From NCBI GenBank assembly GCA_964187785.1, contig OZ076409.1, forward strand, positions 6,016,001-6,080,000: a stretch of DNA of 64,000 nucleotides, read 5' to 3'. The notes under the pieces were generated by a model. The model ran no database searches. It was not told where the DNA came from and saw only the letters and a list, made by a program, of their open reading frames with translations. The stretch comes from Amphiscolops sp. MND2022 (Eukaryota). Below, in pieces: positions 21 to 56,718 of the stretch (positions are counted from its first letter, which is position 1; the number at the start of each line of letters is the position of its first letter). A program made the position numbers and the translations under genes.

Positions 21-638
21 TCACAAATTGTCGGTTTCTCTTTCTCGACAATTGTTACTGTGATAATCCTCTCTTAAGGGTTCAGCGTCAGATTCTTCGT
101 CAGAATGAATAGTCACATCTACATCAGATTCAGCTCGAAACAATGGTTTCGCAGGATGCTTAAGGTCTTTCATCTTAGACGCTCTTAGAGGATAATCGTT
201 GTTTTCAGAATCTGAGTTTTCATTATTAGATGCGTGAACTCTTATAGACGGGTCTATTCTGGATCCCGATGGTTGTGGTTCTTGTATTTCATTTATATCA
301 GATCTTGGGTTTGTTGCAATTGAAGTATTTTTGTTGCATTTTATCTCTTTCAGAATTGCTTCTAGTTTACTATCCATTTCTTCTCTTATTCTCTCTATCC
401 TTTCGGTATTTTTCTGCTCAACAATTTGTGTCCAAACTTGTATTTCATCACTAATTTGACTGGGTTCTCTTAGCTGGTTTTCCAAGTTTGGTTCACCTAA
501 ATTTTCTTGAACATTTAAGTTAGAATTAGTTAAAGTTATATTACCTGTTTCTGAAGAATCGATCCTAGTTTCGCTTGTTTCTCTCTCAGTAGATGGGGTT
601 GCTAGTCTCCTCGATCTTCGACTTCTTTTATTTCCCAT
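21..638 (-). other. LTR-borne copy of the gag 5' end (193 codons) running out into flanking DNA
   Basis: Identical to the N-terminus of ORF 13868-15559 up to ...REDYH, then diverges exactly at the LTR edge (59). Confidence 0.85.
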
Positions 639-1738
639 TTTGCTCAGTAGAAAACAAGTTATGTTTGCTGGGGAAGAATTTGAATTATGTTCTCAAATTG
701 AAAATCCAAACTTGAAAGAGAACAATGAAGGCAGTGGAAATGTGGGTTAGAGCTTATAGGAATTGGATCAACTGCACTCGGTGAAAGTTATTTCAATTGT
801 GTTTTTCTTACAAAATCCTTATTTTCAAAAATATAAAACAATGACAATCATTTTTGCGAGCATCATAGAATCCTGGAAAATCTAAAAATAGGATAACGTC
901 AGATTGCGTAATTCTATTTATATCATCTCCATAATGACGTAAATGCTTCTAATCATCCTTAAACCCTAGGAAAATGCTGCAAAATGATATATTGAACATC
1001 GCAAATACTATCTGATACAGTATAATTGCATGACATTCAAAAACTGCACATTTAGCTGAAAACCGCATAACTCCGCATATACGTCAGCCTCGAAACCGTA
1101 GGGTGACGTATAACACACGTGAACATTTTCCTCACGTTTGCTTAGTATTGTATATACAGCACAACACGATCCGCATAATATTTGCTAGAAACCGTATATT
1201 AACGTATAATCGTCACTGCAAGAAACGCATAGTGACGTATACTGCGAATGGCGAAATGGTATATTACCGCATACACTAATGATTCAAAACGTATGTTATC
1301 GCATATTCAAAAGCGTATAATGACGCATACTTGAAAATCATTTCACGCATAATGAAGTATATTCGTAAAGCTATTTCATGTATGATGACGCATCCTTATT
1401 AGTTGAAAAATGTCTAATGACACATAATCGCAATTCTAATTGTAGCATGATTACGCATAATGAAAGATCAAAAATCACAGATTTACCTTACTTATGTAGC
1501 TTTTAAGCACATGTTACTCTTATGAATGAATTTTAGATGAACTAGACGTCAATGAAAGGCTCAGAAAATATCTTAGAATGAAATTCATCAATGGAAATAC
1601 ACAAATAATTCCAAGACATTGTAGAATAACATCAAAAAGGAGTTTCGAGAGAGTTTAAAATGTTTTATTGTTAAGTCTTTCCAGATGTTCCTTTTCATTG
1701 CTGCACCACGGAACCATCGCATCTCGAGGGATGCGACA
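59..1738 (-). repeat. 3' LTR of element 1 (1680 bp)
   Basis: Colinear with 14980-16659 at constant offset 14921; only about six substitutions seen by eye, all around 990-1440. Confidence 0.96.
1060..1460. repeat. Degenerate ~32-33-bp CGCATA/CGTAT repeat array inside the LTR (second copy ~15980-16380)
   Basis: Recurring aaaccgcata / gacgtata / gacgcata units. Confidence 0.75.
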
Positions 1739-2723
1739 GTCCCGCATTTTTAAAAAGGAACAATGCTGCTTCAAATCCGTGGATGAATGCTCTAGATCTG
1801 ATCGCCCTTTCTTTGACCGTCTCGCCTTCATACTCTGTCGCAACCAGGTATTCACCTAGGGTCTCCAGTGCAATCTGATCGTAACATTTGCCGCAGAGTT
1901 CACAGTACCCCGCAACATTCGCCATCACTGTAGGAATCAGCCTGATGCTATTTCTCTCCTGTGCTGGGATCAATAGGGAATTGCTGCTATGAGTCGCATT
2001 GAACGGAAATCCTAGTTGGACTGTTGGTTGCATCGATTGTGCCAAATGTAGGGCACCATGGTCAATTCCACCAATGCTGAGCGGGAACAGCATCGGAGAG
2101 AGGTTGAATCCAGTGATATTTTCTTGTAATGACCTTTGCTGTGGGACCGTATCATTACGTACCCCTTGCTCCATCGGCTCACTTATCTGCTGTTGCGTGG
2201 GAACCGCCGATTCCTGTCTGTGGTTTGGTGGGTACCTCGGGGTCGGACGGGGAAGAATTCCCCTGTCACTTGAATTTGCTCTTGGTGTTGGGGGGACTCG
2301 AGCTGTGGGGCGGCCATAGTTATTCGTTGTCCTTTGAGGCCCGTTGCCCATAGTCCACGGGAAAAGATTCCCCTCCTCAAATTCACTATCAATGAATGAA
2401 CTCGGAGAGTCCGTTGTCTCATCTTGTGGGGCTCCGATTAGGTCCATTAGTTCTCTTTCCAACTGAGTCCCGGATGTGATTGTGGCAGCTTCATGTCCTG
2501 ACGATATCACTGTCTCAGGATACAGGGTGGCTGTTGCTGCTCCCATAAATGCCGACATTAAATTGCTCCCTGTTGTGTCTATTCGAAATCTTTCGTCGAG
2601 TTGGGCGACGTTTCCGGGTGCAATGGAGAATTCGCCTTCAGAACCGCTTGAGATGTCCACCACATCGGGAGATATGGGAGAATACAGCGAGTCTTCATCA
2701 ATATCAAATTGAAGGTTGTTCAT
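1695..2723 (-). CDS. Accessory sense ORF3 of element 1 (~342 aa): acidic SIM-like N-terminus, low-complexity middle, C-terminal CxxC domain; function unknown
   Basis: Open frame from ATG 2723; homologous to 50449-51240 (FDIDE/FDIEE; CELCGKCYDQI vs CMVCGRSVDEI; RSRAFIHG vs RREAYENG; CDG). Confidence 0.8.
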   Translation of the reverse strand: MNNLQFDIDEDSLYSPISPDVVDISSGSEGEFSIAPGNVAQLDERFRIDTTGSNLMSAFMGAATATLYPETVISSGHEAATITSGTQLERELMDLIGAPQDETTDSPSSFIDSEFEEGNLFPWTMGNGPQRTTNNYGRPTARVPPTPRANSSDRGILPRPTPRYPPNHRQESAVPTQQQISEPMEQGVRNDTVPQQRSLQENITGFNLSPMLFPLSIGGIDHGALHLAQSMQPTVQLGFPFNATHSSNSLLIPAQERNSIRLIPTVMANVAGYCELCGKCYDQIALETLGEYLVATEYEGETVKERAIRSRAFIHGFEAALFLFKNAGLSHPSRCDGSVVQQ

Positions 2724-3579
2724 TTTGATTAGCAAAAGATTATTTAGCGAGATAGATTTTCAAGAGTTTTACAAAGCAGCTGATTTATGAAATCGCAAAG
2801 ACCATATGGTGAATCTTCTTTTCAGTTTCTTCTGATTTTGACAAAACCCCGCTAAAATTCAGGTGTCATGGTTGCGTGGGCTTTGCAAAACCTTATATGG
2901 GACGGAGATGGCGGGTTCCCATATAATTGAGGGGTTAGGTTTTGATATCTTCCATAAATGTAAATAAACAAAATGATCATGGGTTCCTCTGCCTTATCTT
3001 TCATCGGCATCCCCCTTTTGATGTTTCTAGTTTCGTTTCAGTTACATTTAAATTTGATGTAAACAATTATCATCACCTAAGAATTCACCGGAATGGGTGA
3101 ACTAATTGTCAAATATAATCTTATCTAAAAGCATCAATGAAATTCATATCGGGATAAAAAAACATATTACATGGACATCTAAATGTTTTATCAAGTCTGA
3201 AATCACATAAGTACACCACTGTGTATCAATTGTCCCGCATTTGAAAATGCGCAAACTCCTGAAAGGTAGACCCAAGATGATTAGGTAGATTGTCAAGAGT
3301 CTGTTCATTTGTGCTAGCTCAGTGTATATTACGTCTGTATGTATTACTTCTTTTGATGTCATGTTTTCTCCTTTCTTCAAAATAGGTAAAGTTGTCTATT
3401 CGTCAATGCCAGAATCCGCATATTGCCGCGTGTTCACCATCTCTCAATGTAATCATCGACGTATGTTTGTTTGTTTTAAGTCAATACTACTCATTCAATA
3501 CCAATGATTACGTAACACACAATTTCTTCTCGCTTTCAATCTGTATGTTAGCACGTGCTCTTTTACTCTTAATTCCACA

Positions 3580-3975
3580 CAGCGCCGCATAAACTGCACT
3601 CGTCTTTCCTCATGTTGGCGCATGTTTGTGAGTCACAATTACGTATGCCGCCGCATATTACTCACTTGTAGATCTGCATATTTACTCATAATTCCAGTTG
3701 CAAATCCGCATACTGCTGTGTATTGTCAATCTGTAAACGCGCATAATCACTCATAATTACAATCGTGGATCCGCATGCTGTCGTATAATGTTCATCTGTA
3801 AATCCGCATAGTCACGCATAGTCACAATTGTGAATCCGCGTGATGCTGCATATTGTTCATCTGTAAATCCGCATAATCACGTATGATTATTATAGTAGAT
3901 CCGTATGTTGCTGCATGTTGAATACCAGTATTTCGCAGGTTACCGCATATACTAGTACAGTAATTCCGTAGGCTG
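3580..3975. repeat. Degenerate ~32/65-bp AATCCGCATA repeat array between the divergently oriented accessory genes
   Basis: Units such as tgttcatctgtaaatccgcatagtcacgcata recur several times. Confidence 0.8.
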
Positions 3976-4341
3976 TCGCCTATTTGATTGCTTTCACGCT
4001 ATTGCATTGTATCGCACTGTCAATTACGTAATCAGACACTCTGGCAGAAGTGACTGACACATTAATTGGCCAATCAGAATAGAGTATACCATATACTTTG
4101 GTACTAAAGTTGTGCTCATTTGCTCTTTGCCTTTTGTTCTGTTAAGCCACGCCTTTCAACTTTGTTATATTGAAGATTTGCATTACATTATATATTCTTT
4201 ACATTATTGTCCTTCAGTCAGTTTTACAGTCTACAGTATTCGTTCGTTCCTTCCTTTCCTAGGATTTCTTCCAGTCAGGTTCCCTTTTATTTATCTCCCC
4301 TTCACTCAACCGAGTTAACTGGTTTAGCATTCAGTTCATCA

Positions 4342-7300
4342 ATGGAGAACAGCAGGAGTAGGAAAGTTGAACGTGAGGACGTCTCAAGGATGCGGACCAG
4401 GTCTTGGGGGTACAAATCCCCGACAACTTCTTCACCCCGTAAGTTCGAATTTTCGTTTCTTAGTTTCGGTTAAGGATTTTTGTGAGTAAATAGCTGGCCA
4501 GGCTAAAAACTCGAGATTTGAAGATCAATGCATGCTTTTGATCATAATTTGGGTTTTGAAAGTTTCCACACTTCCGGTTTCACTTTCATTCGACTTCCGC
4601 TTCTATGCATTTTGTTCAACGGTTGAATGCGGATTTGTCAAACTGTTTAGTCACATTCGATTTATTGCTTTATTGTTGAATAAAGCTCATGTTTTAGTCG
4701 AACTTGGGGCTACAAACAAGTCACCTGCCCGGTCGCCTACAAAAATTTATACTCCTTTGCGAGTCGTCTCACCTAGTCATTCTGAACCCTCAGTTTACAG
4801 TATTCCTGCACCAACTGATCTCTCACTCAATCAAGCGAGGGAAAGTATAGAACAGCTCTTCAATGAATCGGGTGATCTAACGATTGACACCACTGCTGAT
4901 GAAGAAATGGAGTCTCATGCCTCACTTCTTAATCTCATGCAACTGGTTGAACAAGATCAGCCAACAGAGACGCCCTTAATTGCCAACGACGACTCCCCTA
5001 TTGATGTTGCTGAACAAGAAGCTAACGAAAACGACGCCCCCCTAATTGCCAGCACTTTCTCTCCTCGCTATAGTCAATTTTTGACTCCTGAGTTACCAGC
5101 TGCTGCTTCCCAGCCAGAAACACCTCCTGAGGCACAAGCTCAGACACTAGGAGGCGACCCTAAGCCAACACCACCGCGTCAAATTTTGAATGAGGAATTC
5201 GAGGAAATGCCAAGCAGTTCTGGACTTAACATCAATTTGACACAAAATGAAGTGGCTATGCTGAGGAACGTTTTGGATCGAATACCTCAGTCCCTTTTGG
5301 CTAGGGAGAGGAATGAGCCCAATCCTGAGTTCTCGGTTTCTGTGGTTGCTAATCCCCCTGTTCCCGTTTTCGGTCCTCCACTAATTCCTGGACCAGGAGA
5401 CACATCGGGCGAGAATCCACGCAGGGATACTACCGAATATGACGAGGAAAACGCCTCTAACCGGCCCTCCAAGCGTCCTAGACCTCGATACTATCTTACT
5501 GAGGCTATGTTCCGAAAACACCCTGTTCTGAAGTTTTTTGCGACAGGGCCTATAGACAGAGAGAAAACGCCTTACAAGTGGTGGTGCAGGGTTTGTCGAG
5601 TTGAATTGTCCCTCATGAGTCGCGGCCCACTTGAATTATTGTCTCATTACAAGACCGAAACCCACCTCTTGAAGGAGCACAGGATTAGAATGGAGACACC
5701 TGGTCTACCATTGTACGACAAAGAAGAGGTAGAATTACAAGGAATTGCTCTGCAGGAGGCGAAGCGGATAGCCAAAGATATGCATCCTATTTCTCCACAA
5801 CGTGACCCCTGTCGATTACTTGTTGGACAGGACAAACTTCCTGAGATTAGGAGCGACTCTGCGCCAGTTGACATTGTGTTATCTCAGATCAGAGTTCTTG
5901 AGCTTGGACTAAAACACGGGGGCCATGTTGCAAGCTTAATAGCGATCCATGACGAAATATTACAACACTCATCTGGAGGAAGTTCAATGCAAACTCTCAA
6001 CTGGAGCGATTCACGAATCTTTGTTAGTATACATTACTTTTATCATAAAATAACACCACTGACTCCATAAGATAAACCAATGATGCAAAAACTTCTGGAT
6101 TCCGATCAGTACCGAATGGCACTCATTCGTTAGTTTCTGTTTCAGGGGATGTTGGTGTATATGTTTCGTGAGCTCGTCAATTATTGCGTTACTCACATTG
6201 GCTCATCTCAGGGTTACTCCCTTTCTCTACACCGAACCCCAACAAGGACTCTGCTTTTTATTAGTTTCTGGTCTGGTAACGTTTACCAACGGGTTTGCAT
6301 TGGAGCTGGGCCAAGAGGAGTGCTAATCCCAAGGAGACTCCTCGATTTATTGTGCTCCTTCATCACTCATTTCGAGACACCTCCAACTTGTGTGGCTCTT
6401 ATCGACATGTGTGAGAGACTCAATGTGTGTCTAACTGCGACATTACCAGGCAATCTACGGCCTAATGCAGTCAACAGCTTTGGTCCAACTGAATTTGAGA
6501 GGTGTTTGTCACTTCCGACTGCCAAGATTATAGAGAGGCACGACTTTCGGACCATCATTGATTTTTTACTGACAAAATTACGAACTGCACTTGATCGCGA
6601 CTGGTTGCAGTCCTTGCCGTTACTTCATAAGGTAAAGTCTTTCTTGTCTCTTTTGTCGATTGGCCGGTATTTTGTTATTTTCACAACATAATAAAACCTT
6701 TTCACAGGCAGTACTCAACCTCGAGTTTACCCTAGTCGAAGCGTCTTCCCTGATCGAGTGTTTCTCCTCCAACTGGGACAGAATCAGAGATCATCTAACC
6801 CAAGTGTCCCGATTGCCAGCATATCGATTCCATATAAAAGAAGTTTGTATTCATCGTCATTAGATATTCTATTTGTTAGACTTTTGTTTCCAATTTCCAT
6901 TTCTGTTCTAGCCCAGTGCACTCGATGAATGTTTTCGCCTGGATACCGTGTATCTCGCTCGATTGTTTATCATCCGTTGCATCATCGACAATTGTTAGTA
7001 ATGTCCCATTATTTCACTTCTTTAGTGTCGTTTCAGTATTTCGTCCATTCTCCTTTTATATCCAGTTTCGAAAGGGATATTGTCTAAAAAGTTTGCTGGA
7101 AAGCTCTGGTTCCTGCTTATAACACCGAATTTCCCTGTATTTCTTCCTTTTATAGGTCGTAAGAGATATTTCCACGTGTTTTTGATTATTTCCGCATAAT
7201 CATGCATATACGGTTCATCACATTCCGCCTGTTGACGTATATATGTGGTATTACTGCACGTGCATTAACACGCAGTTTGGATTTGTAATCTGCGTAACAA

Positions 7301-8777
7301 CGTATTTACGCCATTAGGAAATCCGCATAACAACGTATTAACGTCATTAGGAAATCAGCATAGTACCGCATTGTCCATATCCAACTTCCGCATGTTGACG
7401 TAGTGCTTCATTCTTGATTCTGCATGATGACGTATTATTGAGAATCATTTTCTGCATAATAACGCATTACGTCCTGCTGAATTCCGCATGTTAGCGTATA
7501 TTCTTGATTCGATTTCTGTGTAACGACGTATATCCGTCACTTGGAGTTCTGCATTATTGCGTGTCTTTTGGTTTTAACTTCTGCATAATGACTTGTACTC
7601 TCTATCACCAGCTCCGTATAGGAGTGTATTTTTCATTCAAAAGATGATTCATGCTTATGTGGTATGTTTTGTTTCAGACAATTCCGCGTTTTCCGATTTG
7701 CAAGGTCATCTTGATCAAGGATTCAGGATCTTTAATCAATTTTCTGTATTCATATACAGCCAGTTACAGCTGATATTGCCTGATAGCTTCCTCGGGGATA
7801 TTTCCGAATGGGATACCTACTTGAAAATTGACTTGGCGCAAGCAGATCTTCCCTTCAAAGCCCCTGCAGATTTCGTCCTGAACCCAGATTATCATCATTT
7901 GGTTACATCCAGCCGTTTACCGCGTCCTAGCAAATTCGTGGAGCAGTCAATGGCTTTCTGCAAATCTTTTTGTGGTGTGTTATTGTCCCACAGTATTCTG
8001 AAATCTGCTCTAATTCGTGGTTTATCCTGTTTCGACAGCGCCGTCATGTTAGACGGGCCTGAACGACATTACGTTGCTGCCATAGAGGATCTTACAAGTT
8101 ACTTTGTGTCTTCCAGTTTGATTACGCCTGGAGACAAGACCAAGTGTGTGAGTCAGTATCGGTCGTTGGTGGCCAAGCTTCGTACTGTCAACGACATCCC
8201 AAGAAGTAATTGGGTGCTGTTCCTTGGGGCTCACTACGAAATGCAGAGTCGTCCCGAACTTTCCAAAGTGTTTCGATATGCTAGTTTGTGTTTGCCACCA
8301 ACCGTTACAATTCCTACCTCTTTCAAGATTTCGGTCCCGGATCTTGCATCTGACCATGAGGCTTTCCAGTCTATTGTCAACAGTTTACAGCTCTCGTATG
8401 TCACCGTACCCAACGTTTCCAGTCTTTATCAGGATCCTCGATCTGTATGTCGTATCTTTCGTTTGTTGGGCCGGGGGCGAGAGTTGCTCAGTGACAAAAA
8501 GTTCTCTGTTTGGACCTTTTCACGTGGGAATGTGTCTAAACGGCTTGCCTTACGTGAAAAGATGGAGGCTGCGTACAAGAAGACAGTTTTGGATGGTGAA
8601 GGGTTGCCCATCTTTCTAGATGTATCTTCGCCAAGTGGTAGTGCTCCTTCTAGTAGCAACAGTTCTCCGCTTCCTGGGCCGTCTCTGGGACTCGTTTCTG
8701 TAAGTGTCTCTCGTTGTGTTGAGGCAGGGGTTAACAACGACAAGACCAAGAAGAAAACGAAGGCTAAGAAGTCTTGA
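4342..8777 (+). CDS. Spliced antisense gene of element 1: BED-like zinc finger plus degenerate hAT-transposase-like body, ~1074 aa. Exons 4342-4438, 4698-6022, 6146-6631, 6708-6842, 6912-6993, 7678-8777
   Basis: All five introns are GT-AG and phase-compatible (1,0,0,0,1), total 3225 nt open; WCRVC-x16-H-x5-H motif; homologous exon structure in element 2. Confidence 0.82.
7190..7600. repeat. Degenerate ~33-bp TCCGCATA..ACGTAT repeat array within intron 5 of the antisense gene
   Basis: e.g. aatccgcataacaacgtattaacgtcattagga and neighbouring variants. Confidence 0.78.
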
Positions 8778-8975
8778 TCAAATGTGTTTGCTCCGCAACT
8801 TTTAGTATTATTTGAATTTCTCTTTGCTGATTTGAAACTGTATCATCTCATGTTTTGTTTGTATTTATCTTTGTAGTTATGTTATTCGCTACCGCAGAGG
8901 TACTGTTTGGTAAAAGTTCTATAATACTCAATTCCCAGGAAGGAAGTTAGAAACAAAATTTGTGAAGGTTTGTCT

Positions 8976-11900
8976 TTAGTATCTGTAGGTGTCAGAGTAG
9001 TTTGGGTTAGGGTTGGGACGTAGGTTATATTTTTCACCACGAGTATTTATGGGTTCTTCTTGCAATGGAGGATTTTGTGAATTTTCTGGGGTTTTTTGGG
9101 AGTTTTCTGGGGTAATTTGAATGTCGTTCTCTGATGAATTTCCAATATCTTTTTGGGTTTTTGGGGTGTTTCTATCATCTTGACCATTTTGTTGTGACTT
9201 TTCATTTTCGTGATTTTCATTCGGTTCAGTGGTCTGTTCCACTGGGCTCCCCCCACTATTTTTTGAAGTTCCAGGGGAGGGAGGGTGGTAATCATCAGGT
9301 ATTTGGATCGGGGTGTATTCCGTGTCCTCAGTGTTTTGGGAACACTCGGAAATACCTTCATCAAAAGGGTTTGATCCAAAATTCGTGTTCCATGATTGGG
9401 CATATAGGTCGTCATTTGCTATAGGCATTTGATCATCTTTTTGCCAGTCGGTTTCACGGACAAAAATGTCTGCTAATGGGGCCTGCGGGGTAAACTTTCG
9501 CAGACGAATCCTGTGTAATAATTGTGTTTTGTTTGTCCCAAGTCTCCTGACAATATAATTGTTGTTAGGGAGTACCTTTTCGACTTTATAGGGACCACAC
9601 CATCTGAATTCTCTGAAGGGTATTTTCGTTGCTTGAGTGTCAGCCTTTGGGTTAAGAATATAGCAGTAGTCCGTCGTTTCGAGTGGAGCTGCTTTTGCTT
9701 TCCTATCGTAGTACGCCTTATACTTGAGATAAGATTGCATGATATTCTTCTTTGTCTGGTCTAGCAGAATTTTCATCCTTTTATGGATTTCTTCAGCTAT
9801 GTCGGTTTGAGGTTGATATCTCGGATTAGGGTTGTATCCAAGTTTATAGTCTAAAATATTGTGTGGTATCCTGCCATGGAAAACTCGTGAAGGTTCACAA
9901 CCGAGTGATGCATGGTATGTGGTGTTGTGATTGAGGATTGCCAAAGGGAGATATTTATGCCAGTTGTTCCTGAATTCGCCTGTTGCGGCTTTCAGGTGTG
10001 TTTTTACTGATGCATGTGTCCTCTCGAGGAGTCCTATTGTTTGTGCATGCTTCATTGTTGCATGTTTTAGTTCGATTCCTAGCACTGCGGCGATCTCATG
10101 CGTTACTTGTGCATTGAATTGGGTTCCTAAGTCCGTTATTATTGTTGTTGGTAGGTATGTGTGTTTGCATAGTATATCCATTATGACTCTTGCTACTGCT
10201 GTTGCGTTGATGCGAGTTACAGGATAAGCAAACAAGTATCTCGAGAAGACATCTATTGCAGTGATAATATGGTCATAGCCTCCGCTTGGGGGGAGGTTTG
10301 GCAAAATGTCCATTTGCAGTATGTCTTCTGGACCTAGATCCCATTCTGGACAATTAAGGAGTTCTGTCCTCAGGAGATCGTTATTGATGCGTTTGGTTTG
10401 GATGCAAATTTGACAATTACTGACCCATTTCTTGATGTATTTTGCCATACAAGGGTAGTAATATTTTTGTCTTGCTTCTTGTATCATTTTTGTGATACCT
10501 GGGTGGTTTGAATTATGTCCATGAAGGGCTTGAAGGAACTCGTCTAGAAGTTGAATTGGAAGAAGGATTTGGTAATGAGATATTGTTCCAGTATCCGTAT
10601 AATATTTCCTGGTGAGTACTTCTTGTTTGATTTCTATTCTTGTGATATTTTGTAGGTAATGGTGGTATCTGTAGTCTGATGCCAATTCATTTTCATCGAA
10701 GGAATCGCCTTCGATTTTGGCTCGTAAGTTTCTGAGAACTATATCGTTATTTTGTTCCAGGCGTATCTTTGCATTGTCTCTGAAGTATCCTGATGATATT
10801 GAAATTAATCCTGATGTAGGTTTGTGGAATTGTTGTAGTTCAGAGACAGCATTTTCTGGTTCATTGTGGGATTCGGTTTGAGCCTGATTCCGTACATTTT
10901 GCTTTTCTTCCCAGAGTTGATTTTCATCAATGTCATCGTCTGGGAGGATGTAAATTTGCTCTTCTTCGACTATGCCTGAGGATTGGATATTCACTTCAAT
11001 TGCTTTTGTGTGGATATCGTTGCGGATAGTCATTTCGAGCTTTTCTGTTGGGTTTACCTCCGTTCTTGATAGAAAGTCTGCTGCTGTGTTCATTGAACCA
11101 GCAACATGGGCGATTACAAAATTGTACTGCAATACATAATCGCAAGCGTTCCAGAGTGCTGGAGGGATCATTTTTGTTTGAAAAAATCTTGTTACCGAGC
11201 GATTGTCTGTGAACACGATTACTGGGAAGGTAGTACCCCACATAAGGTGTCCAAATTCGACAAACACGAAATATATGGAAAGAAATTCTTTCGCATATAT
11301 TGACATTTTGGTTTGGGTTGGATTAAACGTTTTGGATCCAAACGCTATGGGTGCATATGTTTTACGTTTGGATTGTAGTTTTTGGTTCGGGTCGTCTTCT
11401 ATCATGATTGCATATCCAGCAGCTGTGAAGCTCGCGTCGGACATGACTATGAGTTGTTTATGCTTCAGCGGTTGTTTCAGGGCCAGTTGGCAGGAATTTT
11501 CGAGTAGTTTGTTTAAGTTTGTGAATTCTTCGACCAAATTTGTTGGTACATAAAACTTGGATGTTTCCTTGAGGAGTTTGAAAAACGGGGTCAACCGTTC
11601 TGAAAGGCGTGGAATGTAGTTTCGGTAATAGTTCAAAAACCCGATATACCTTTGCAACGCCTTTTTCGATTTAGGGAAACGGAGCTTGGCGAGAAAATCT
11701 TTCACTTTGTCGGCTTGTGGGGCGACTCCATCAGGTGTGATTGTGCGGCCCAGGAAGTCGACTTGTTTAACTCCGAAATGGCATTTCGACATGGAGAGTT
11801 TCAATCCTGCATTGCGTATGCATTGGAAGACTGTTCGTATGTTGGTACATAATTGTTTTGTATCGTTTGCTGCTATGCCGATGTCATCGACATATTGAGC

Positions 11901-13877
11901 GCATTGATCTGCTTTAATTGCCTTGTCCAGGTAGTCTCTCATGAAGCTTGAGAATGCAGAAAGTGATCTGCTGAGACCCTGGGCTAGTCGTCTATAGGCG
12001 AATGTTCGGCTTGCAAAGTTAAATGCAAGCATCTGGATGGATTGGTAGTCTGCCATCTGTAGGCAGTGGTAAGCCTGGGAGCAATCCAATTTGCAGAAGA
12101 GTTTTTTCCCTGCCATGTGTTGGGCTGCATCCGATAAGGTGCTTACCGGGTGGTTGTTATTGACATAATCTTCAGTAATCAAGTTGTTAATTTTTCGTAG
12201 ATCAACAAGAAGTCTGAGGCGCCCGTTGGGTTTGCGCTGTGCAAAGATTGGGCTTGCATATTTAGAGAAGGGTAAGGTTGTAATGATACCATATTTGTGT
12301 AGTAGTGCGAGTTCTACAGTGATATCATCTTTGAGGTTTATTGGGGTCGGCAGACTTTGGCTGTAAGCAGGTCTGTCGTCATTGGGTGTGAGTTTAACTT
12401 TGAATTCCCGATTTATCCCAATGTCAAAACGATGTCTTGCAAAAATATCGTGGAACTCAATGAGAATTTCCTCAATTTCCTTTCGTTCATCTGGGGTGAG
12501 TGTTGTATCAGACCAATCAAAGTGTGAGAGAAATTCTGTTCTGGAAGTTTCACTATCGTGTGGGTTTAGTTTCTCAAGTTCTTTAAGTTCAAGGAGTTCG
12601 TTATATATACGTTGCTGGATTGGGGTATATGTTGTTGGATCTCCTGGTTCTTCTGGGGTTGGGAACCAGTATGTTTCCTGTTCTGGATTTGTTTGTGGAA
12701 CTTTTAGGAGTTCATTTATGTAGACTTCCGTTGTCTCTTCATGTTGTATCATGAAGGATAGTAACGTTGGGTCCACTGGCTGAATATGTTTAATTTGTTC
12801 TGGGGTAAGTATCTTGAAGTCCGCTAGATGGGTGTCAAGAGTAATGGTGTAAGGTAGTTCCGAGAAGTTGATGATTTGGTATCCTATGGCGTTGTTGTTA
12901 ACTGTACTTAACGATGCCGTTATAAAGATACTGTCGTGATTTTCAAATTGTTGCGATGGGGTGACTATTCCAGTAGCATTATGGTCCATCAAATGTGGCA
13001 TTTTGCTTGCAATGGCGAGTGTTTCGCCCGGTCGTAAAGTGTATGTATTCTCTGCAAATAGTGGTGTTGTTGGTCGAATTGATGTTTGGGTGTCTGGTTT
13101 AAGCTGCATTGAAAGATATGGAAAAGTTAAGATGCCTTGCGTGACATCGAAAATTGCATTATTTCGTCGTAGGAAGCATAACCCTATTAGTGGGTTTGGT
13201 AGGTTTTTCATTATAATGAAATTTTCTTTTAACATGAAGTCAGCCACCTCGAATTCGAGGAGTACAGTGCCGATTGGGACTTCTAATTGTCCATTCGCCA
13301 CCATGATTTGGAAGTTTGGTGGGGGACCGGTTTCTTTGATTGCTTCATTTGCAAGCAACTTAATTTTGTTGAGGTCTTGTTCGGAGATTGCACTCGTGAG
13401 GGCACCAGTGTCGATAAGACCGTCGAGTGTTAGCTTTTCGAAGTCCATCGGTATGTAATACATGTGGCGTTTTCGCTTCAGTGTTAATGATGTTGAGATT
13501 GGAAGGTATGATACATTTCTTTCGTGGTCGAATTGTATATGTTCAGAGAGGTCCTCGTTCAGAAGAGGTGGTTTTTGGTCATTGCAAGAAGTTTTAATTG
13601 AAACATAATTTTTTGGTGAGTGTGGGGGTTCTGGGGTTAAGTCGGTTTTATGGCTAGTTGGCTGTTTTGTAAAGTAGTTGTCTGGTGCATCAGACAGAAG
13701 GTCATATATGTCTTCAGAGAGAGTTTCTTGTGTTGAATGTTGAAGATTTTGTGCTGGTAAGCCAGTTGTGGGTGTTATGGTTTTTGTTGGTTTTGGGCTC
13801 GGCGTATGCTGCCAGTCATCTGCAGAGTTTATTTTTTGTGGTGATTTTATGTAAAGGCGTGGCGATTCTAGTTTAAA
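8976..13877 (-). CDS. pol: Pol polyprotein (aspartic protease, RT, RNase H, integrase), intact, probably expressed by -1 frameshift
   Basis: LIDTGA protease; QYVDD RT; MSDAS RNase H; HHCC and DDE integrase; GPY motif; TTTAAAC slippery site at the gag stop. Confidence 0.96.
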   Translation of the reverse strand, partial: FKLESPRLYIKSPQKINSADDWQHTPSPKPTKTITPTTGLPAQNLQHSTQETLSEDIYDLLSDAPDNYFTKQPTSHKTDLTPEPPHSPKNYVSIKTSCNDQKPPLLNEDLSEHIQFDHERNVSYLPISTSLTLKRKRHMYYIPMDFEKLTLDGLIDTGALTSAISEQDLNKIKLLANEAIKETGPPPNFQIMVANGQLEVPIGTVLLEFEVADFMLKENFIIMKNLPNPLIGLCFLRRNNAIFDVTQGILTFPYLSMQLKPDTQTSIRPTTPLFAENTYTLRPGETLAIASKMPHLMDHNATGIVTPSQQFENHDSIFITASLSTVNNNAIGYQIINFSELPYTITLDTHLADFKILTPEQIKHIQPVDPTLLSFMIQHEETTEVYINELLKVPQTNPEQETYWFPTPEEPGDPTTYTPIQQRIYNELLELKELEKLNPHDSETSRTEFLSHFDWSDTTLTPDERKEIEEILIEFHDIFARHRFDIGINREFKVKLTPNDDRPAYSQSLPTPINLKDDITVELALLHKYGIITTLPFSKYASPIFAQRKPNGRLRLLVDLRKINNLITEDYVNNNHPVSTLSDAAQHMAGKKLFCKLDCSQAYHCLQMADYQSIQMLAFNFASRTFAYRRLAQGLSRSLSAFSSFMRDYLDKAIKADQCAQYVDDIGIAANDTKQLCTNIRTVFQCIRNAGLKLSMSKCHFGVKQVDFLGRTITPDGVAPQADKVKDFLAKLRFPKSKKALQRYIGFLNYYRNYIPRLSERLTPFFKLLKETSKFYVPTNLVEEFTNLNKLLENSCQLALKQPLKHKQLIVMSDASFTAAGYAIMIEDDPNQKLQSKRKTYAPIAFGSKTFNPTQTKMSIYAKEFLSIYFVFVEFGHLMWGTTFPVIVFTDNRSVTRFFQTKMIPPALWNACDYVLQYNFVIAHVAGSMNTAADFLSRTEVNPTEKLEMTIRNDIHTKAIEVNIQSSGIVEEEQIYILPDDDIDENQLWEEKQNVRNQAQTESHNEPENAVSELQQFHKPTSGLISISSGYFRDNAKIRLEQNNDIVLRNLRAKIEGDSFDENELASDYRYHHYLQNITRIEIKQEVLTRKYYTDTGTISHYQILLPIQLLDEFLQALHGHNSNHPGITKMIQEARQKYYYPCMAKYIKKWVSNCQICIQTKRINNDLLRTELLNCPEWDLGPEDILQMDILPNLPPSGGYDHIITAIDVFSRYLFAYPVTRINATAVARVIMDILCKHTYLPTTIITDLGTQFNAQVTHEIAAVLGIELKHATMKHAQTIGLLERTHASVKTHLKAATGEFRNNWHKYLPLAILNHNTTYHASLGCEPSRVFHGRIPHNILDYKLGYNPNPRYQPQTDIAEEIHKRMKILLDQTKKNIMQSYLKYKAYYDRKAKAAPLETTDYCYILNPKADTQATKIPFREFRWCGPYKVEKVLPNNNYIVRRLGTNKTQLLHRIRLRKFTPQAPLADIFVRETDWQKDDQMPIANDDLYAQSWNTNFGSNPFDEGISECSQNTEDTEYTPIQIPDDYHPPSPGTSKNSGGSPVEQTTEPNENHENEKSQQNGQDDRNTPKTQKDIGNSSENDIQITPENSQKTPENSQNPPLQEEPINTRGEKYNLRPNPNPNYSDTYRY

Positions 13878-15559
13878 TCCTTCGAAGAGGATTGTTGTGG
13901 ACGTTCTGTTTTTGGTTTTATTGGTTTTCGCGCTTGTTTGTATGCTTCGATGATCTTTTGTTGGGCTTCCGTAAGATTCCACTTCGGTGGTCGATTTTCC
14001 ATGTTGGCTCCGAAGTAGCAATTTTCTTCTTCATGACCTGGTGTATTGCAATTCTCACATTTTGCTGCATCCAGGTCTTCTTCGAGTTTTCTTCGTTTTG
14101 CCAGTTTGGGACAATCGGCCATCATGTGGCCTGCCTCTTTGCAATAACGGCATTGGTTGTTTTTGAGCGTTTTGTCAGGCACTGTTTTTGGCGTTTGTTT
14201 TTTGGTTTTTTCGTTCGGTTTTTTGTTAGATTTTTCAGTACTTTGTTCTTTTTTAGTAACGGTCATCTGAGTTTTGACGAGGGGTTCATCAGCCTCTAAA
14301 CCGTTGAGTTCCATCTCTCTTTCAAGATGTTTGACTATTTGGTCGTAATTGCCATTTTCAAGGTATGCTTGATTTATGGACTTTTTGAGATGGGGAGGCA
14401 TTTTAGCATAGAGTAAGTTCTCTATCATTTGATGAGCGTTGTCCCCAAATGCTTTTTCGGCACTTTCTTGGAGTTCTTCCAGGAAATCCGGAAGTTTTTG
14501 ATTCTCTGGGTCAAATGAGAGTCTGTTAAACCGGTGCTTGGCCGATGCACTAGACTCCGGTTTGACATACTTTCTACGAAAAACCTTTAGGATGTCTTCT
14601 AAGGTCGTAGTTGGAGTTCTTTGTATGTTTTTGAATGTTTTGAGAGCCAAACCCCTCAGGTGTGCGTGAAAATGGTTAATTTTCATTTCTTCTGTTAGGT
14701 TTGGCTGCATTCGCAGTGTTGTATGAAATAAGTCTTCGAAATATTCGAATTTTTCATTTTTCTCGTTTTTGCCATTGAATGTGAGTGTGTTTTTGGGATG
14801 AAATAAGGATTGTGGAGAGTTTTTGTTTGCCAGTTTTTCTATTGCTAATGCAATCTGGTTAACTGGGTCGACTTGTTTTGTTGTCGAATTTGACAAATTT
14901 TGGTCTGCGCGGGATCCTATTGTATCGTTGAAGTTTTGTGAGCTTTGTCTATAGAGTTGTCGGTTGGCTCCTGTCACCATGTGATAATCCTCTCTTAAGG
15001 GTTCAGCGTCAGATTCTTCGTCAGAATGAATAGTCACATCTACATCAGATTCAGCTCGAAACAATGGTTTCGCAGGATGCTTAAGGTCTTTCATCTTAGA
15101 CGCTCTTAGAGGATAATCGTTGTTTTCAGAATCTGAGTTTTCATTATTAGATGCGTGAACTCTTATAGACGGGTCTATTCTGGATCCCGATGGTTGTGGT
15201 TCTTGTATTTCATTTATATCAGATCTTGGGTTTGTTGCAATTGAAGTATTTTTGTTGCATTTTATCTCTTTCAGAATTGCTTCTAGTTTACTATCCATTT
15301 CTTCTCTTATTCTCTCTATCCTTTCGGTATTTTTCTGCTCAACAATTTGTGTCCAAACTTGTATTTCATCACTAATTTGACTGGGTTCTCTTAGCTGGTT
15401 TTCCAAGTTTGGTTCACCTAAATTTTCTTGAACATTTAAGTTAGAATTAGTTAAAGTTATATTACCTGTTTCTGAAGAATCGATCCTAGTTTCGCTTGTT
15501 TCTCTCTCAGTAGATGGGGTTGCTAGTCTCCTCGATCTTCGACTTCTTTTATTTCCCAT
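13868..15559 (-). CDS. gag: Gag (563 aa) with two CCHC zinc knuckles; starts inside the 5' LTR
   Basis: CRYCKEAGHMMADC and CENCNTPGHEEENC; capsid-like core homologous to element 2 gag. Confidence 0.93.
   Translation of the reverse strand: MGNKRSRRSRRLATPSTERETSETRIDSSETGNITLTNSNLNVQENLGEPNLENQLREPSQISDEIQVWTQIVEQKNTERIERIREEMDSKLEAILKEIKCNKNTSIATNPRSDINEIQEPQPSGSRIDPSIRVHASNNENSDSENNDYPLRASKMKDLKHPAKPLFRAESDVDVTIHSDEESDAEPLREDYHMVTGANRQLYRQSSQNFNDTIGSRADQNLSNSTTKQVDPVNQIALAIEKLANKNSPQSLFHPKNTLTFNGKNEKNEKFEYFEDLFHTTLRMQPNLTEEMKINHFHAHLRGLALKTFKNIQRTPTTTLEDILKVFRRKYVKPESSASAKHRFNRLSFDPENQKLPDFLEELQESAEKAFGDNAHQMIENLLYAKMPPHLKKSINQAYLENGNYDQIVKHLEREMELNGLEADEPLVKTQMTVTKKEQSTEKSNKKPNEKTKKQTPKTVPDKTLKNNQCRYCKEAGHMMADCPKLAKRRKLEEDLDAAKCENCNTPGHEEENCYFGANMENRPPKWNLTEAQQKIIEAYKQARKPIKPKTERPQQSSSKDLN
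14968..14979 (-). promoter_or_regulatory. Primer-binding site TGGTGACAGGAG (tRNA-Leu-like, identity tentative)
   Basis: Begins with TGG immediately after the LTR's terminal CA; the same 12-mer follows the LTR of element 2. Confidence 0.88.
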
Positions 15560-16659
15560 TTTGCTCAGTAGAAAACAAGTTATGTTTGCTGGGGAAGAAT
15601 TTGAATTATGTTCTCAAATTGAAAATCCAAACTTGAAAGAGAACAATGAAGGCAGTGGAAATGTGGGTTAGAGCTTATAGGAATTGGATCAACTGCACTC
15701 GGTGAAAGTTATTTCAATTGTGTTTTTCTTACAAAATCCTTATTTTCAAAAATATAAAACAATGACAATCATTTTTGCGAGCATCATAGAATCCTGGAAA
15801 ATCTAAAAATAGGATAACGTCAGATTGCGTAATTCTATTTATATCATCTCCATAATGACGTAAATGCTTCTAATCATCCTTAAACCCTAGGAAAATGCTG
15901 CAAAATGATATATTAAACATCGCAAATACTATCTGATACAATATAATTGCATGACATTCAAAAACTGCACATTTAGCTGAAAACCGCCTAACTCCGCATA
16001 TACGTCAGCCTCGAAACCGTAGGGTGACGTATAACACACGTGAACATTTGCCTCACGTTTGCTTAGTATTGTATATACAGCACAACACGATCCGCATAAT
16101 ATTTGCTAGAAACCGTATATTAACGTATAATCGTCACTGCAAGAAACGCATAGTGACGTATACTGCGAATGGCGAAATGGTATATTACCGCATACACTAA
16201 TGATTCAAAACGTATGTTATCGCATATTCAAAAGCGTATAATGACGCATACTTGAAAATCATTTCACGCATAATGAAGTATATTCGTAAAGCTATTTCAT
16301 GTATGATGACGCATCCTTATTAGTTGAAAAATGTCTAATGACGCATAATCGCACTTCTAATTGTAGCATGATTACGCATAATGAAAGATCAAAAATCACA
16401 GATTTACCTTACTTATGTAGCTTTTAAGCACATGTTACTCTTATGAATGAATTTTAGATGAACTAGACGTCAATGAAAGGCTCAGAAAATATCTTAGAAT
16501 GAAATTCATCAATGGAAATACACAAATAATTCCAAGACATTGTAGAATAACATCAAAAAGGAGTTTCGAGAGAGTTTAAAATGTTTTATTGTTAAGTCTT
16601 TCCAGATGTTCCTTTTCATTGCTGCACCACGGAACCATCGCATCTCGAGGGATGCGACA
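14980..16659 (-). repeat. 5' LTR of element 1 (1680 bp)
   Basis: Direct repeat of 59-1738, followed by the PBS on the - strand. Confidence 0.96.
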
Positions 16660-16813
16660 GTTACCCTTGAAGATTTCGTTTCCCAAAGTTGAACCACGTT
16701 TGTGTTTCTTGGTAGCAAGCAAAAATTTTTGAACTTTCGGAAAGTTTTGTGTCAGCGGACTGAAAAAATCAACAGCAAAGTTGCTTTTAAGGAACCACTT
16801 ACGTAGGAGACCT

Positions 16814-17299: not shown

Positions 17300-19270
17300 A
17301 TTAAATGATTTTAAAAAAGTAATTTATTTTCAGAAGGCAGTGTATTTACAGTCTTGTAACATTTTTTAAAGTAGGAGAGAGGTATCATTCTGTTTTGCAA
17401 ATACAATACAGCTAATCTATCGAAAGAGATATTCACTCCAACACTTTTTTCCATATTCGAAATTGTCTTTTTCGCTTACATATTTGCTTAAGAAGTTTTG
17501 TTTGATATTTTTTTTTGGTTGTTATGTAGGTACATTTCCCAATTTTTAGCTTGTCAGGTAACTCGTTCCATATGGGTACTGTATTACTGAATAAGCTTTT
17601 CTTAAGAGAGTCAGTTTTGCATTGGATGTTGAAGTAGACTTTCTTGGTTCGTTTGTGAGATCTTATGTCACCGGTAGAAAATTTCTTTTTCCCTGCAAAT
17701 GCCGGAAGTTTTTTGTTTTTCCATTTCCAGTAGAAGTTGGCATTTTTGCTTTGGAAAAGATATCGGACTGGGAAAATATAATGCTGATTTTTGAGATCTG
17801 AGGAATGATCATATTTTAAACGGTTAAAACATGCTTTTATTCCCCAATTTAACTGTTTTTCAACGTGGTAAAAAGGTTGTCTGAAAGTCCGCTTAGTGAG
17901 ATAGCCGAGTAGTGCAAGTGGCTCACCACTGGGGCAATTAAAAGCAATTTCCTGGTTTTTCGGGGGAAAATGTCTCGTACAGAGTACAGACTTGTTATTC
18001 CCAGTGCCATCTTGCTGAGGATATTTTTGATCTCGATTTGGTAGTTTAGGTTTTGATCTAGGTAAACACCGAGATATTTCACATTAGAAATTGCCGAAAT
18101 AACTTGGTTTTGAACTTTGAGTTTTAGTTTTTTCATCGAATAGTTTTTTGCTTCTCTACAAAACATTATAAATTCAGACTTGCCAGCATTGATGGTCAAC
18201 CGGTGACTTTCAAAAAAGAATAATAATTTCTCCACAATTTGTTCAAGTGAGGCTGTTGCTTTGTGGATATTACTAACTGACTTGAGCACCATGGTATCAT
18301 CTGCGTATTGCAAAAGTTTGCAGTAATTTTGAACCTCATGTTGCATATCATTAACGTAGATGTTAATAAGTAATGGACCGAGTACGGTTCCTTGAGGAAC
18401 ACCTTGGTATAGATTTATCCAATCTGAGTGACAGTTGGGAAGGGTTATATTTTGATATCTTTCGGGAAGAAAACTTCGTATCATCGAAATTGACATTGGG
18501 TCGAAATTATATTGCTTTAATTTGTTTAACAAGATTTCATGCGATATGGAATCGAAAGCTTTTGATAAATCCAAGAAAGCTGCGGCTACATTTTCGCCAT
18601 CGTCTAAGTTTTTTCGGATAGTTTCAGTAGCATAAAGTAATGCATCGGTTGTTGAAAAACGTGCTCGAAAACCAAACAGTGTTTCGCCTAATAACTGATT
18701 TTCCTCCAGATTTTCATTCATTTGTTTTCTTAGAACTTTTTCAAAAATTTTTGATATGGCTGGGGTTATTGAGATGGGTCGATAATTGCATGGGTCTTCT
18801 TCTTCCCTTTTTGTAAATAGGAGTTACCAAAGCGTGTTTCAAATGATTCGGAAACTTTTCTTCTATGATGAAGGCATTGATTAGGTAGCAAAAGGGCTCA
18901 GCAATGACGTTTCTACAGTCTTTCAAAACCCATGCAGGAATACTACACGGTCCTATAAGTTTATTTTTATTGAGACATAATAACTGTTTTCTACAGTCAT
19001 AAAGACTGATGGGTTGAAGCGAAAATACTTTTTGTGCATTGTTTCGGGTACTGTTGGCGGATCGTAAGGCCTAGCAGTCCCCATATAGTCCCCTAATTTT
19101 GAGAACCGAAAATTTAGTAGGTTTGCAATTTTCTTTTGATCTATTACGTGGTCGCCGAAACAGTTCTTTAGGCTTGTTATTTCTGTTTTTGTTCGCTGTG
19201 CATTCCTGGATTCATTTATAAATTTCCAGTTGTCCTTTCAGTAGTCAGGTTGTTGAAAGTTGCTATTTGA
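17300..19270 (-). pseudogene. 5'-truncated, frameshifted non-LTR retrotransposon (LINE, CR1/L2-like) RT fragment
   Basis: FLDLSKAFD, GVPQGTVLGP, QYADDT, VKYLGV motifs in ORF 17849-18721; upstream part lies in another frame; boundaries approximate. Confidence 0.88.
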
Positions 19271-28156: not shown

Positions 28157-28247
28157 TATAGAAGTTAACCTTTTCATTCAGCTTGCTGTCAGGAATGTTC
28201 AAGATCGATGGTCAAAAACCTCCCTTGAACCACGACTTCAGGTCTGT

Positions 28248-28485
28248 AAAGCGACAATTCGTCCCCGATTCCAAAAAAATGACAATTCGTCCCCAATTCC
28301 AAAAAGTGACAATTCGTCCCCAATTCCAAAAAGTGACAATTCGTCCCCAATTGCAAAAAGCGACAATTCGTCCCCAATTGCAAAAAGGGACAATTCGTCC
28401 CCAATTCCAAAAAGTGACAATTCGTCCCCAATTCCAAAAAGTGACAATTCGTCCCCAATTGCAAAAAAGCGACAATTCCTCCCCA
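28248..28485. repeat. 27-bp minisatellite (~8.5 copies), probably one arm of a foldback element
   Basis: Unit gacaattcgtccccaattccaaaaagt; inverted units at 28678-28726 and ~29190-29205. Confidence 0.9.
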
Positions 28486-28724
28486 GTTTAATTGCCAACT
28501 AAGACCTTTATAGTAATGAATCCGGTTGGCAAACTGGATAATCGTCTTTCACAATCTTCAGTATTTCAAGACTAGTGCGTAAAATTCAATACTCAATCAT
28601 TTCTACTTTGAAAACTATTTGTTCAATTCTTCAATTTCAAACTTCAAAAAGGTTGTTAATTAGCTGATCAATTGAACAATTTGGGACGAATTGGCGCCTT
28701 TCCAAAATGGGACGAATTGTCGCT

Positions 28725-56476: not shown

Positions 56477-56718
56477 TTGTGCATATCTATGTATGTACAA
56501 TCAAACTGTAAACCTTGTCATTTTTCTGTTTTGTTGATTTGTCTATATTATTCGTTTCTTTCTCTTGCTTTCCTTGATCCCGTATTTATTCTTTTGTAAG
56601 GGATTACCTTTGAGTCCCGTTATTTATTCAAAGATACCGTTGTTTGGGACTAGAAAAAAAAACAAAGAAAAGAGAGATATGATTCAGGGCTTGTTTCCTG
56701 AACTGAACTCAATTTTCT

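Follow-up and report, generated by a model that had tools for sequence, protein, structure and literature searches.

Ty3/Gypsy retrotransposons of Amphiscolops sp. carrying a large, intron-containing antisense gene

How could a gene interrupted by spliceosomal introns persist in an element that copies itself through RNA, and is such a gene a lodger in the element or one of its parts? The question is raised by a 64,000-nt stretch of DNA from Amphiscolops sp. MND2022 (assembly GCA_964187785.1, contig OZ076409.1, positions 6,016,001 to 6,080,000; hereafter the window), in which two Ty3/Gypsy retrotransposons lie on the minus strand, element 1 at 59-16659 and element 2 from 48802 to beyond 64000. 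Both hold, between pol and a further sense open reading frame (ORF3) beside the 3′ long terminal repeat (LTR), a series of plus-strand frames that run opposite to the strand of the genomic RNA. We consider it likely that a metazoan Ty3/Gypsy clade of very high abundance has in these frames a genuine accessory gene, which is kept by selection and exchanged as a cassette. Its spliceosomal introns would be copied with the element because they are antisense to the RNA that is reverse-transcribed and are never removed from it, as the known replication cycle implies.

Joined through GT-AG introns, the plus-strand pieces give one open frame in each element: six exons, 3225 nt and 1074 aa in element 1, and five exons, 3831 nt and 1276 aa in element 2, exactly as a preliminary description of this DNA had put them together. 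All nine introns of the two models are of the GT-AG type with pyrimidine-rich acceptors; the least certain part of the models is exon 1 of element 2, which has 16 nt and a weak donor (GTTGGA). The intron phases match, as had been claimed, at 1, 0, 0, (0), 1 in element 1 and 1, 0, 0, 1 in element 2. The further claim of two internal exons of identical length stands for the exon of 486 nt and falls for that of 217 nt, which is a single exon in element 2 and is represented in element 1 by two exons of 135 and 82 nt. The two proteins are colinear and 22% identical (146/675, E 3e-31), and thus far more diverged than the part of Pol from reverse transcriptase (RT) to integrase, which is 59% identical between the elements. 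Their alignment runs without a gap through the three shared junctions, including a Tyr codon that is split by a phase-1 intron in both, which argues that the junctions are right. The models were reassembled manually, guided by the letters themselves and by the reading frames that diverged copies conserve; this comparison took the place of an ab initio search for splice paths between exon 4 and the stop, which had yielded 939 possibilities. Upstream of the gene in element 1, candidate promoter motifs can be made out by eye (CCAAT at about 4070, a TATA-like motif at about 4186).

Whether this gene belongs to the element was judged from element 1 itself and from further copies. By self-BLAST, the LTRs of element 1 (59-1740 and 14980-16661) are 99.64% identical over 1682 nt; read by eye, they begin with TGTGAT and end with GCGACA (TG...CA) at 59-1738 and 14980-16659, and GTTAC stands on both sides of the element, in agreement with the near-identical LTRs and clean target-site duplication described before. 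All other loci named here come from the same 1.07-Gb assembly, whose Wnt genes mark it as that of an animal. A first look at this genome gave 6188 candidates for the last exon of element 1, 7421 for that of element 2, 5191 for ORF3 and 33,731 for an RT segment; these are not copy numbers, and about 100 for each query were scored. Three samples were drawn: 20 copies of family A, picked from the table of last-exon matches (identity span 53-87%); four shorter copies of the second family, for which the pol region lies outside the fetched stretch (family B, five copies in total); and 12 copies chosen by RT alone from outside the earlier sample, with RTs 96-98% identical. In each of the 20 copies selected by the last exon, exon 2, exon 3 and the last exon follow in order and are succeeded by a convergent pol. 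The exons keep the same order in 4/4 copies of the second family, where pol is not among the fetched letters, and 12/12 RT-selected copies bear a stop-free last exon at the predicted distance and on the predicted strand. Wherever pol was covered, in 32/32 sampled copies, the gene is convergent to it; in element 1 the two stop codons are separated by 198 nt. The preliminary description had held that the gene moves with the element and would co-occur with this pol clade, and had raised its absence from most copies as a possibility to the contrary: every sampled copy has it. The sampled places yielded no instance of the gene that stood apart from pol, no systematic search for one having been made. 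The antisense gene is a true part of the element and travels with it, and, judged by the two families, it is older than their split.

The copies also allow the introns to be judged. With the exon ends placed on 26 copies by projection of the protein matches, the splice donors read GT in 23, 26, 25 and 26 of them and the acceptors AG in 25, 24, 25 and 25, where the counts for intron 4 include three intron-less copies in which the dinucleotides are exonic. The exon lengths of 486, 135 and 82 nt stem partly from the projection, which leaves the dinucleotides as the independent evidence. Among pairs of copies, four of moderate divergence have exons that are 80-92% identical, third codon positions of exon 3 that are 57-65% identical and introns that are 55-74% identical; exon, third position and intron rank in the same order in two further pairs, of which one is closer and the other more distant. 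Introns diverge at about the rate of third codon positions, and their length differences between copies do not come in multiples of three. Of the 26 copies, 23 (family A, L033 and L034) have the intron that follows codon 45 of the 217-nt exon; from element 2, L031 and L032 it is absent with single-base precision. Such an exact loss is the trace expected from recombination with a spliced, reverse-transcribed RNA, and would point, if indirectly, to splicing. Exon 1 was found in 18 of the 20 family-A loci, with an ATG in 16 of these 18.

Selection on the gene was estimated from the ratio of nonsynonymous to synonymous divergence (dN/dS) by the Nei-Gojobori method. In the seven family-A pairs with measurable dS, exon 3 has a ratio of 0.03-0.07 and the last exon one of 0.05-0.11, next to 0.02-0.09 for RT in six of the same pairs; in congruent pairs, the rate of change of the antisense protein is about two to three times that of RT. 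In the remaining pairs the synonymous sites of the antisense gene are saturated at a dN of 0.2-0.46, and in family B, with a dN of 0.07-0.25, they are saturated in all but two comparisons. On these values the antisense gene is constrained coding sequence under purifying selection within each type, which upholds the idea of an accessory gene under selection.

Some of the elements are mosaics. L018 and L029 share a pol that is 98.5% identical over 4.1 kb (dS of RT 0.007) and an upstream spacer that is 89% identical, while their antisense genes are 70-79% identical, in a patchy manner and with saturated synonymous sites. The same discordance is found between L018 and L020 and between element 1 and L012; across the comparisons of L018 with L029 and L020, pol is at 96-98.5%, the upstream spacer at 89-94% and the gene at about 70-79%, and the identity switches at two points, the stop codon of pol and the vicinity of the gene's start. 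Faster evolution of the protein is ruled out as the reason for this discordance because introns and synonymous sites have diverged too; the combination of a near-identical pol (98.5%) with a gene of about 70% identity therefore means that the gene has been exchanged as a cassette. Template switching between co-packaged RNAs, the textbook route to mosaic retroelements, is most likely the route of exchange. The diversity of the cassette is large: at 80% identity, the 38 last exons sampled form 22 clusters, whereas the RTs of family A are 94-98% identical, and each of the 12 RT-selected copies is 62-66% identical to the nearest of the 26 earlier sequences.

Why would so many diverged gene types sit on near-identical gag-pol? 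Diversifying or frequency-dependent selection could keep them there, a reading that refines the one we prefer and that we regard as possible, though on the doubtful side. In its specificity-module form, the types would serve escape from a host repressor, or each type would recognise its own kind. The mosaics L018/L029 and L018/L020, the number of last-exon clusters and the distance of every RT-selected copy from the earlier sequences all speak for it. However, recombination alone suffices for mosaics, the saturation of dS between types puts a site-wise test of positive selection out of reach, and the repeat array upstream of the gene does not co-vary with it in L018/L029 (89% against about 70%).

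It is improbable, by comparison with a selected accessory gene, that a host gene was transduced once and has been carried ever since as a passenger useless to the element. The spliceosomal introns are host-like, no relative is found among known transposon proteins, and capture of a cellular gene has been discussed as one origin of the antisense ORFs of plant elements in the available text of PMC7264820. A useless passenger would decay, however, whereas this gene has a dN/dS of 0.03-0.11, open frames and splice sites that are kept where synonymous sites are saturated. It is also older than the divergence of two families with 59% identity in pol, and the sampled places, among which no systematic search was made, hold no pol-free copy.

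What would an accessory gene of this kind encode? The predicted protein comprises a low-complexity N terminus, basic stretches, a CCHH zinc finger, the domain encoded by exon 3 and a helical C-terminal half. The finger, P..WC..C....S....G..E...H.....HL, is invariant in 19 sequences of both families, in which the CCHH and 16 more positions do not change. In the model of exon 3 (mean predicted local distance difference test score, pLDDT, 64.7; core 70-80), the elements follow in the order beta1-beta2-beta3-alpha-beta4-alpha-beta5, and Foldseek retrieves eRF1 domains, RuvC, pox resolvases, retroviral integrases and Hermes with E from 8e-4 to 1e-2. The model shows a predicted RNase H-like fold class that is not assignable to a family. 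On strand 1 and after strand 4, the positions of the first two DDE acids, acidic residues are unconserved among 23 sequences. The last exon is predicted, with low confidence (mean pLDDT 53.7), to be all-helical, and its model has no Foldseek match at E <= 0.001.

Sequence searches returned relatives without names. Pfam gave nothing on the six exon pieces (E up to 1) and only scattered chance-level rows on 19, 26 and 23 aligned members (alignments A1-A3, E up to 10), and the PDB searched by sequence gave none for alignment A2 and chance-level rows only for A1. Among 7999 scored candidates of 700-2000 aa, there is no full-length homologue at E <= 0.001, which is weak evidence. In an exhaustive search with profiles, 741 cluster representatives reached E <= 0.001; the best 150 of these are all at most 419 aa long and are therefore single-exon ORFs. 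Ten clusters that were looked up have no informative name (one bears only the MGnify tag 'CR=1 FL=1'); the 120 listed relatives, all but one known from ENA alone, include none with a Pfam domain or an informative name.

The makeup of the protein bears on a further alternative, an ordinary DNA transposon, for instance of the hAT kind, that sits inside the retrotransposon and has no part in its life cycle. The order of zinc finger, RNase H-like fold and long helical region is a transposase-like architecture, shared with hAT transposases and ZBED5, FAM200, GTF2IRD2 and Hermes. For the finger region, the ESM Atlas gives clusters with zf-C2H2_12, FAM200B-like/zf-BED and GTF2IRD2 at 0.90-0.91, an unconfirmed lead towards hAT, and Hermes is present in both fold searches (rank 38 in Foldseek, E 1e-2). 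Yet the fold match to hAT is no better than that to many unrelated RNase H-like or actin-like proteins, and in sequence the protein does not resemble BED, zf-C2H2_12, DUF4371 or the hAT dimerisation domain. Pfam (E up to 10) finds no BED, hATC or transposase domain, and for the hAT dimerisation domain no match in 26 sequences of the last exon, whose model is of low confidence. Against the genome, PF18658 hits a single marginal, unrelated place and PF14291 nothing, control genomes giving nothing for it either. Conserved DDE residues are missing: neither strand 1 nor the stretch after strand 4 has a conserved acidic residue. As for terminal inverted repeats, whose presence around the gene the preliminary description had raised as a sign of a nested transposon, none is there: no flanking inverted repeat of at least 14 nt exists in 1741-9100. 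The gene has, moreover, the same place and orientation in 36/36 further copies from two families. A nested transposon is thus a very improbable explanation, and a present-day one is largely refuted by the missing inverted repeats and the copy survey; ancient capture of a transposase is possible as the origin of the gene.

It is hardly credible that the plus-strand frames are a by-product of constraint on the minus strand, through cis-acting RNA elements or an unrecognised sense gene, and encode no protein: the gene is seen in DNA alone and its stops are followed by no canonical polyadenylation signal, but the minus-strand ORFs here have only 80-137 aa, substitutions track the plus-strand codon positions, exon lengths are kept while intron lengths vary, and two proteins of 22% identity align across the junctions only with the introns removed.

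Several points weigh against our reading of a selected accessory gene and of its product. The gene, its start site and its junctions are known here from the letters of the genome, and neither AATAAA nor ATTAAA is found on the plus strand within about 600 nt past either stop (8778-9400; 56477-57100); the antisense transcript may end inside the pol region, where it would overlap the sense RNA. Everything named rests on one genome. The 20-copy sample consists of best-scoring last exons that are mostly stop-free and the 12-copy sample comes from the 96 best of 33,731 RT candidates, so that decayed copies are under-represented because the samples were drawn from best-scoring matches. The very young pairs L016/L017, L018/L028 and L021/L030 have noisy dN/dS values of 0.06-0.62 based on a handful of changes; since pol behaves likewise in these pairs, they are uninformative either way. 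On the side of the protein, the confidence of both models is low to middling, the RNase H-like fold is very common, and no sequence family in the Pfam scans backs any function. VIA-align on the exon 3 model (top Z 9.2) has sugar and pantothenate kinases of the actin-like ATPase kind as its best rows, and the values for the maedi-visna virus (MVV) integrase (6.9) and Hermes (6.7 over 117 residues) are within the tool's stated background of Z <8.

How might such a gene serve its element? It would have its own promoter in the 1.4-kb spacer upstream of exon 1, and splicing would lead to a protein of about 1100-1300 aa with a disordered N terminus, basic stretches resembling nuclear localisation signals, the CCHH finger, an RNase H-like domain in which no catalytic acids are conserved any longer, and the helical half. 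This product could act in trans for the element, in transcription, in the handling of genomic RNA, in integration or in escape from host silencing. From its predicted parts, we tentatively suggest a nuclear, nucleic-acid-binding, non-catalytic cofactor or regulator acting in trans. A bolder proposal, which strikes us as rather unlikely, is that the clade depends on this transposase-like, catalytically dead zinc-finger protein as a swappable specificity cassette, with ancient types being kept because diversity pays.

The closest counterparts are found in plants. As the preliminary description had noted, plant Ty3/Gypsy elements have antisense ORFs, and those between pol and the 3′ LTR include gene23 of maize Grande and the ORFs of rice RIRE2, Silene Retand (TRP28) and PvRetro13, according to the available text of PMC7264820 and PMC11963269. 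In the accessible parts of the reports, the product of Grande gene23 is nuclear, Retand TRP28 is predicted to be DNA-binding, and a function in regulation is suggested though unproven; tandem arrays are reported from the same region of Retand elements (PMC7264820, PMC11963269, PMC4408406). As far as these accounts go, position and orientation are the same as for the gene described here, and the elements are also alike in the long pol-to-3′ LTR region, in the tandem arrays within it and in the presence of the gene in most copies of a lineage; the nuclear or DNA-binding properties that are reported or predicted for the plant products would be shared here by inference from the sequence. Unlike in plants, the host is an animal, the protein is much larger and there are four or five conserved spliceosomal introns. 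The word 'intron' is absent from the available main text of PMC7264820 and PMC11963269, where cassette exchange has no mention either, and the plant-type domains Transposase_28 (PF04195), plant mobile domain (PMD) and SMC are not found here by Pfam.

A fungal case is brtn, the antisense gene of Boty-like Gypsy elements in Botrytis cinerea, which is cited in the available text of PMC7264820 (Zhao et al. 2011, Virology 417:248). It resembles the present gene, by that description, as an extra antisense gene on a Gypsy lineage, and differs in having a fungal host. In retroviruses, HBZ of human T-lymphotropic virus 1 (HTLV-1) is a small bZIP protein that is transcribed from the 3′ LTR, and the intron of its spliced form survives replication, being antisense. 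HBZ stands, in the accessible part of PMC10186651, for the antisense genes of retroviruses, and like the gene described here it is encoded by an LTR retroelement in antisense to the genomic RNA. Unlike HBZ, our gene starts about 2.6 kb inside the element, contains four to five introns and has no bZIP domain that could be found.

For animals, the expectation that the arrangement is unreported holds provisionally: no antisense gene in an animal LTR retrotransposon was found in the literature searched, which misses most subscription journals and Repbase reports. In the available portions of these sources, no antisense or intron-bearing gene came to light in a study of rotifer elements (PMC5408684), a study of annelid elements only cites a plant review on the matter (PMC8220671), and a 2026 eLife study of env-carrying metazoan elements leaves antisense genes unmentioned (PMC13524379). 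The kind of arrangement is thus already known from plants and Botrytis; new here are the host, the protein and the cassette-like exchange.

Antisense accessory genes have been known in plants for decades and their function is still open, and the animal case lends itself unusually well to such work, with a large, selected gene that contains four to five introns and exists in many diverged types that amount to natural experiments. The family is represented by tens of thousands of RT matches, and by many open frames, in 1.07 Gb. The exchange of cassettes shows that retrotransposons are able to reshuffle an accessory module much as retroviruses swap env. Repeat masking hides the gene from annotation, and a protein family of hundreds of clusters has gone unseen.

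Table 1. Coordinates of the features of both elements within the window
Feature	Position	Strand	Basis or remark
Target-site duplication GTTAC, 5 bp, element 1	54-58 and 16660-16664		flanks read in the sequence
3′ LTR, element 1	59-1738	-	self-BLAST; ends read by eye
Sense ORF3, element 1, 354 aa	1695-2759	-	ORF list; terminates within the 3′ LTR
Tandem array, period 32/65, motif WTCCGCAT	3667-3920	+	upstream of the antisense gene
Antisense exon 1, 97 nt, ATG start, phase-1 donor GTAAGT	4342-4438	+	sequence, joined frame
Antisense exon 2, 1325 nt; poorly conserved low-complexity N terminus, basic KRPRPRY stretch, invariant CCHH finger	4698-6022	+	alignment A3
Antisense exon 3, 486 nt, 162 aa; predicted RNase H-like fold	6146-6631	+	copy comparison, fold model
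Antisense exon 4, 135 nt	6708-6842	+	copy comparison
Antisense exon 5, 82 nt	6912-6993	+	copy comparison
Antisense exon 6, 1100 nt including stop; predicted helical C-terminal domain, Ser-rich basic tail	7678-8777	+	model
pol, element 1, 1684 aa (protease, RT, RNase H, integrase)	8976-14030	-	Pfam; convergent with the antisense gene
gag, element 1, CCHC knuckle	13868-14982	-	Pfam zf-CCHC
5′ LTR, element 1	14980-16659	-	followed by primer-binding-site-like TGGTGACAGGAG on the minus strand
3′ LTR, element 2	48802-49803	-	97.9% over 1004 nt to the 5′ LTR
Sense ORF3, element 2, 295 aa	50449-51336	-	comparison with element 1 ORF3
Antisense gene exons, element 2	52144-52159 (uncertain), 52361-54318, 54454-54939, 55035-55251, 55323-56476	+	joined frame
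gag (61871-63076), protease ORF (60240-61883) and RT-integrase ORF (56719-60288), element 2	56719-63076	-	Pfam, ORFs

The rest of the two elements is of Gypsy type (Table 1). On the pol protein of element 1, Pfam places gag-asp_proteas at 201-289, RVT_1 at 599-764, RT_RNaseH at 858-966, Integrase_H2C2 at 1158-1213 and rve at 1234-1324, which is the Gypsy-type order of protease, RT, RNase H and integrase, with CCHC knuckles in gag; the region from pol to the 3′ LTR is unusually long at 7.2 kb. The 5′ LTR of element 2, from 63001 on, is truncated where the window stops. In both elements, the sequence TGGTGACAGGAG, a candidate primer-binding site, follows the 5′ LTR. Element 1 has a single pol frame of 1684 aa; that of element 2 lies in two frames, which overlap by 49 nt at 60240-60288 between protease and RT. 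An ATG spans the junction of 5′ LTR and primer-binding site in both elements (14978-15613 region on the minus strand; 63001-63003), where …CA at the end of the LTR followed by TGGTGACAGG translates as M-V-T-G. The gag frame of element 1 continues without a stop for 211 further codons into the 5′ LTR, with an upstream start MGNKRS…, and gag may thus start within the LTR.

The fourth gene of the lineage, the sense ORF3 beside the 3′ LTR, is conserved, as the preliminary description of a four-gene lineage had implied. It has an acidic, Ser-rich N terminus and a conserved C-terminal CxxCG…R..A..G motif (CxxC region), aligns between the elements at E 1e-7 and has no match in a Pfam scan; a genome search for it gave 116 matches among the scored candidates, with identities down to 57% and mostly open frames. 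The octamer WTCCGCAT is clustered on the plus strand at 3414-3920, upstream of the antisense gene, and at 7190-7489, within its 684-nt last intron; the window has 16 occurrences against 3.7 expected, a number reached in 0/100 shuffles.

Outside the two elements, an ORF with another RT (RVT_1, E 4e-37) lies just past element 1 at 17849-18823 on the minus strand and is part of a different retroelement. An exon of pyrroline-5-carboxylate reductase at 42008-42427 on the minus strand (P5CR_dimer, E 5e-35) is the sole clear piece of a host gene between the elements, and at 28247-28494 a 27-bp unit (GACAATTCGTCCCCAATTCCAAAAA…) is repeated in seven tandem copies.

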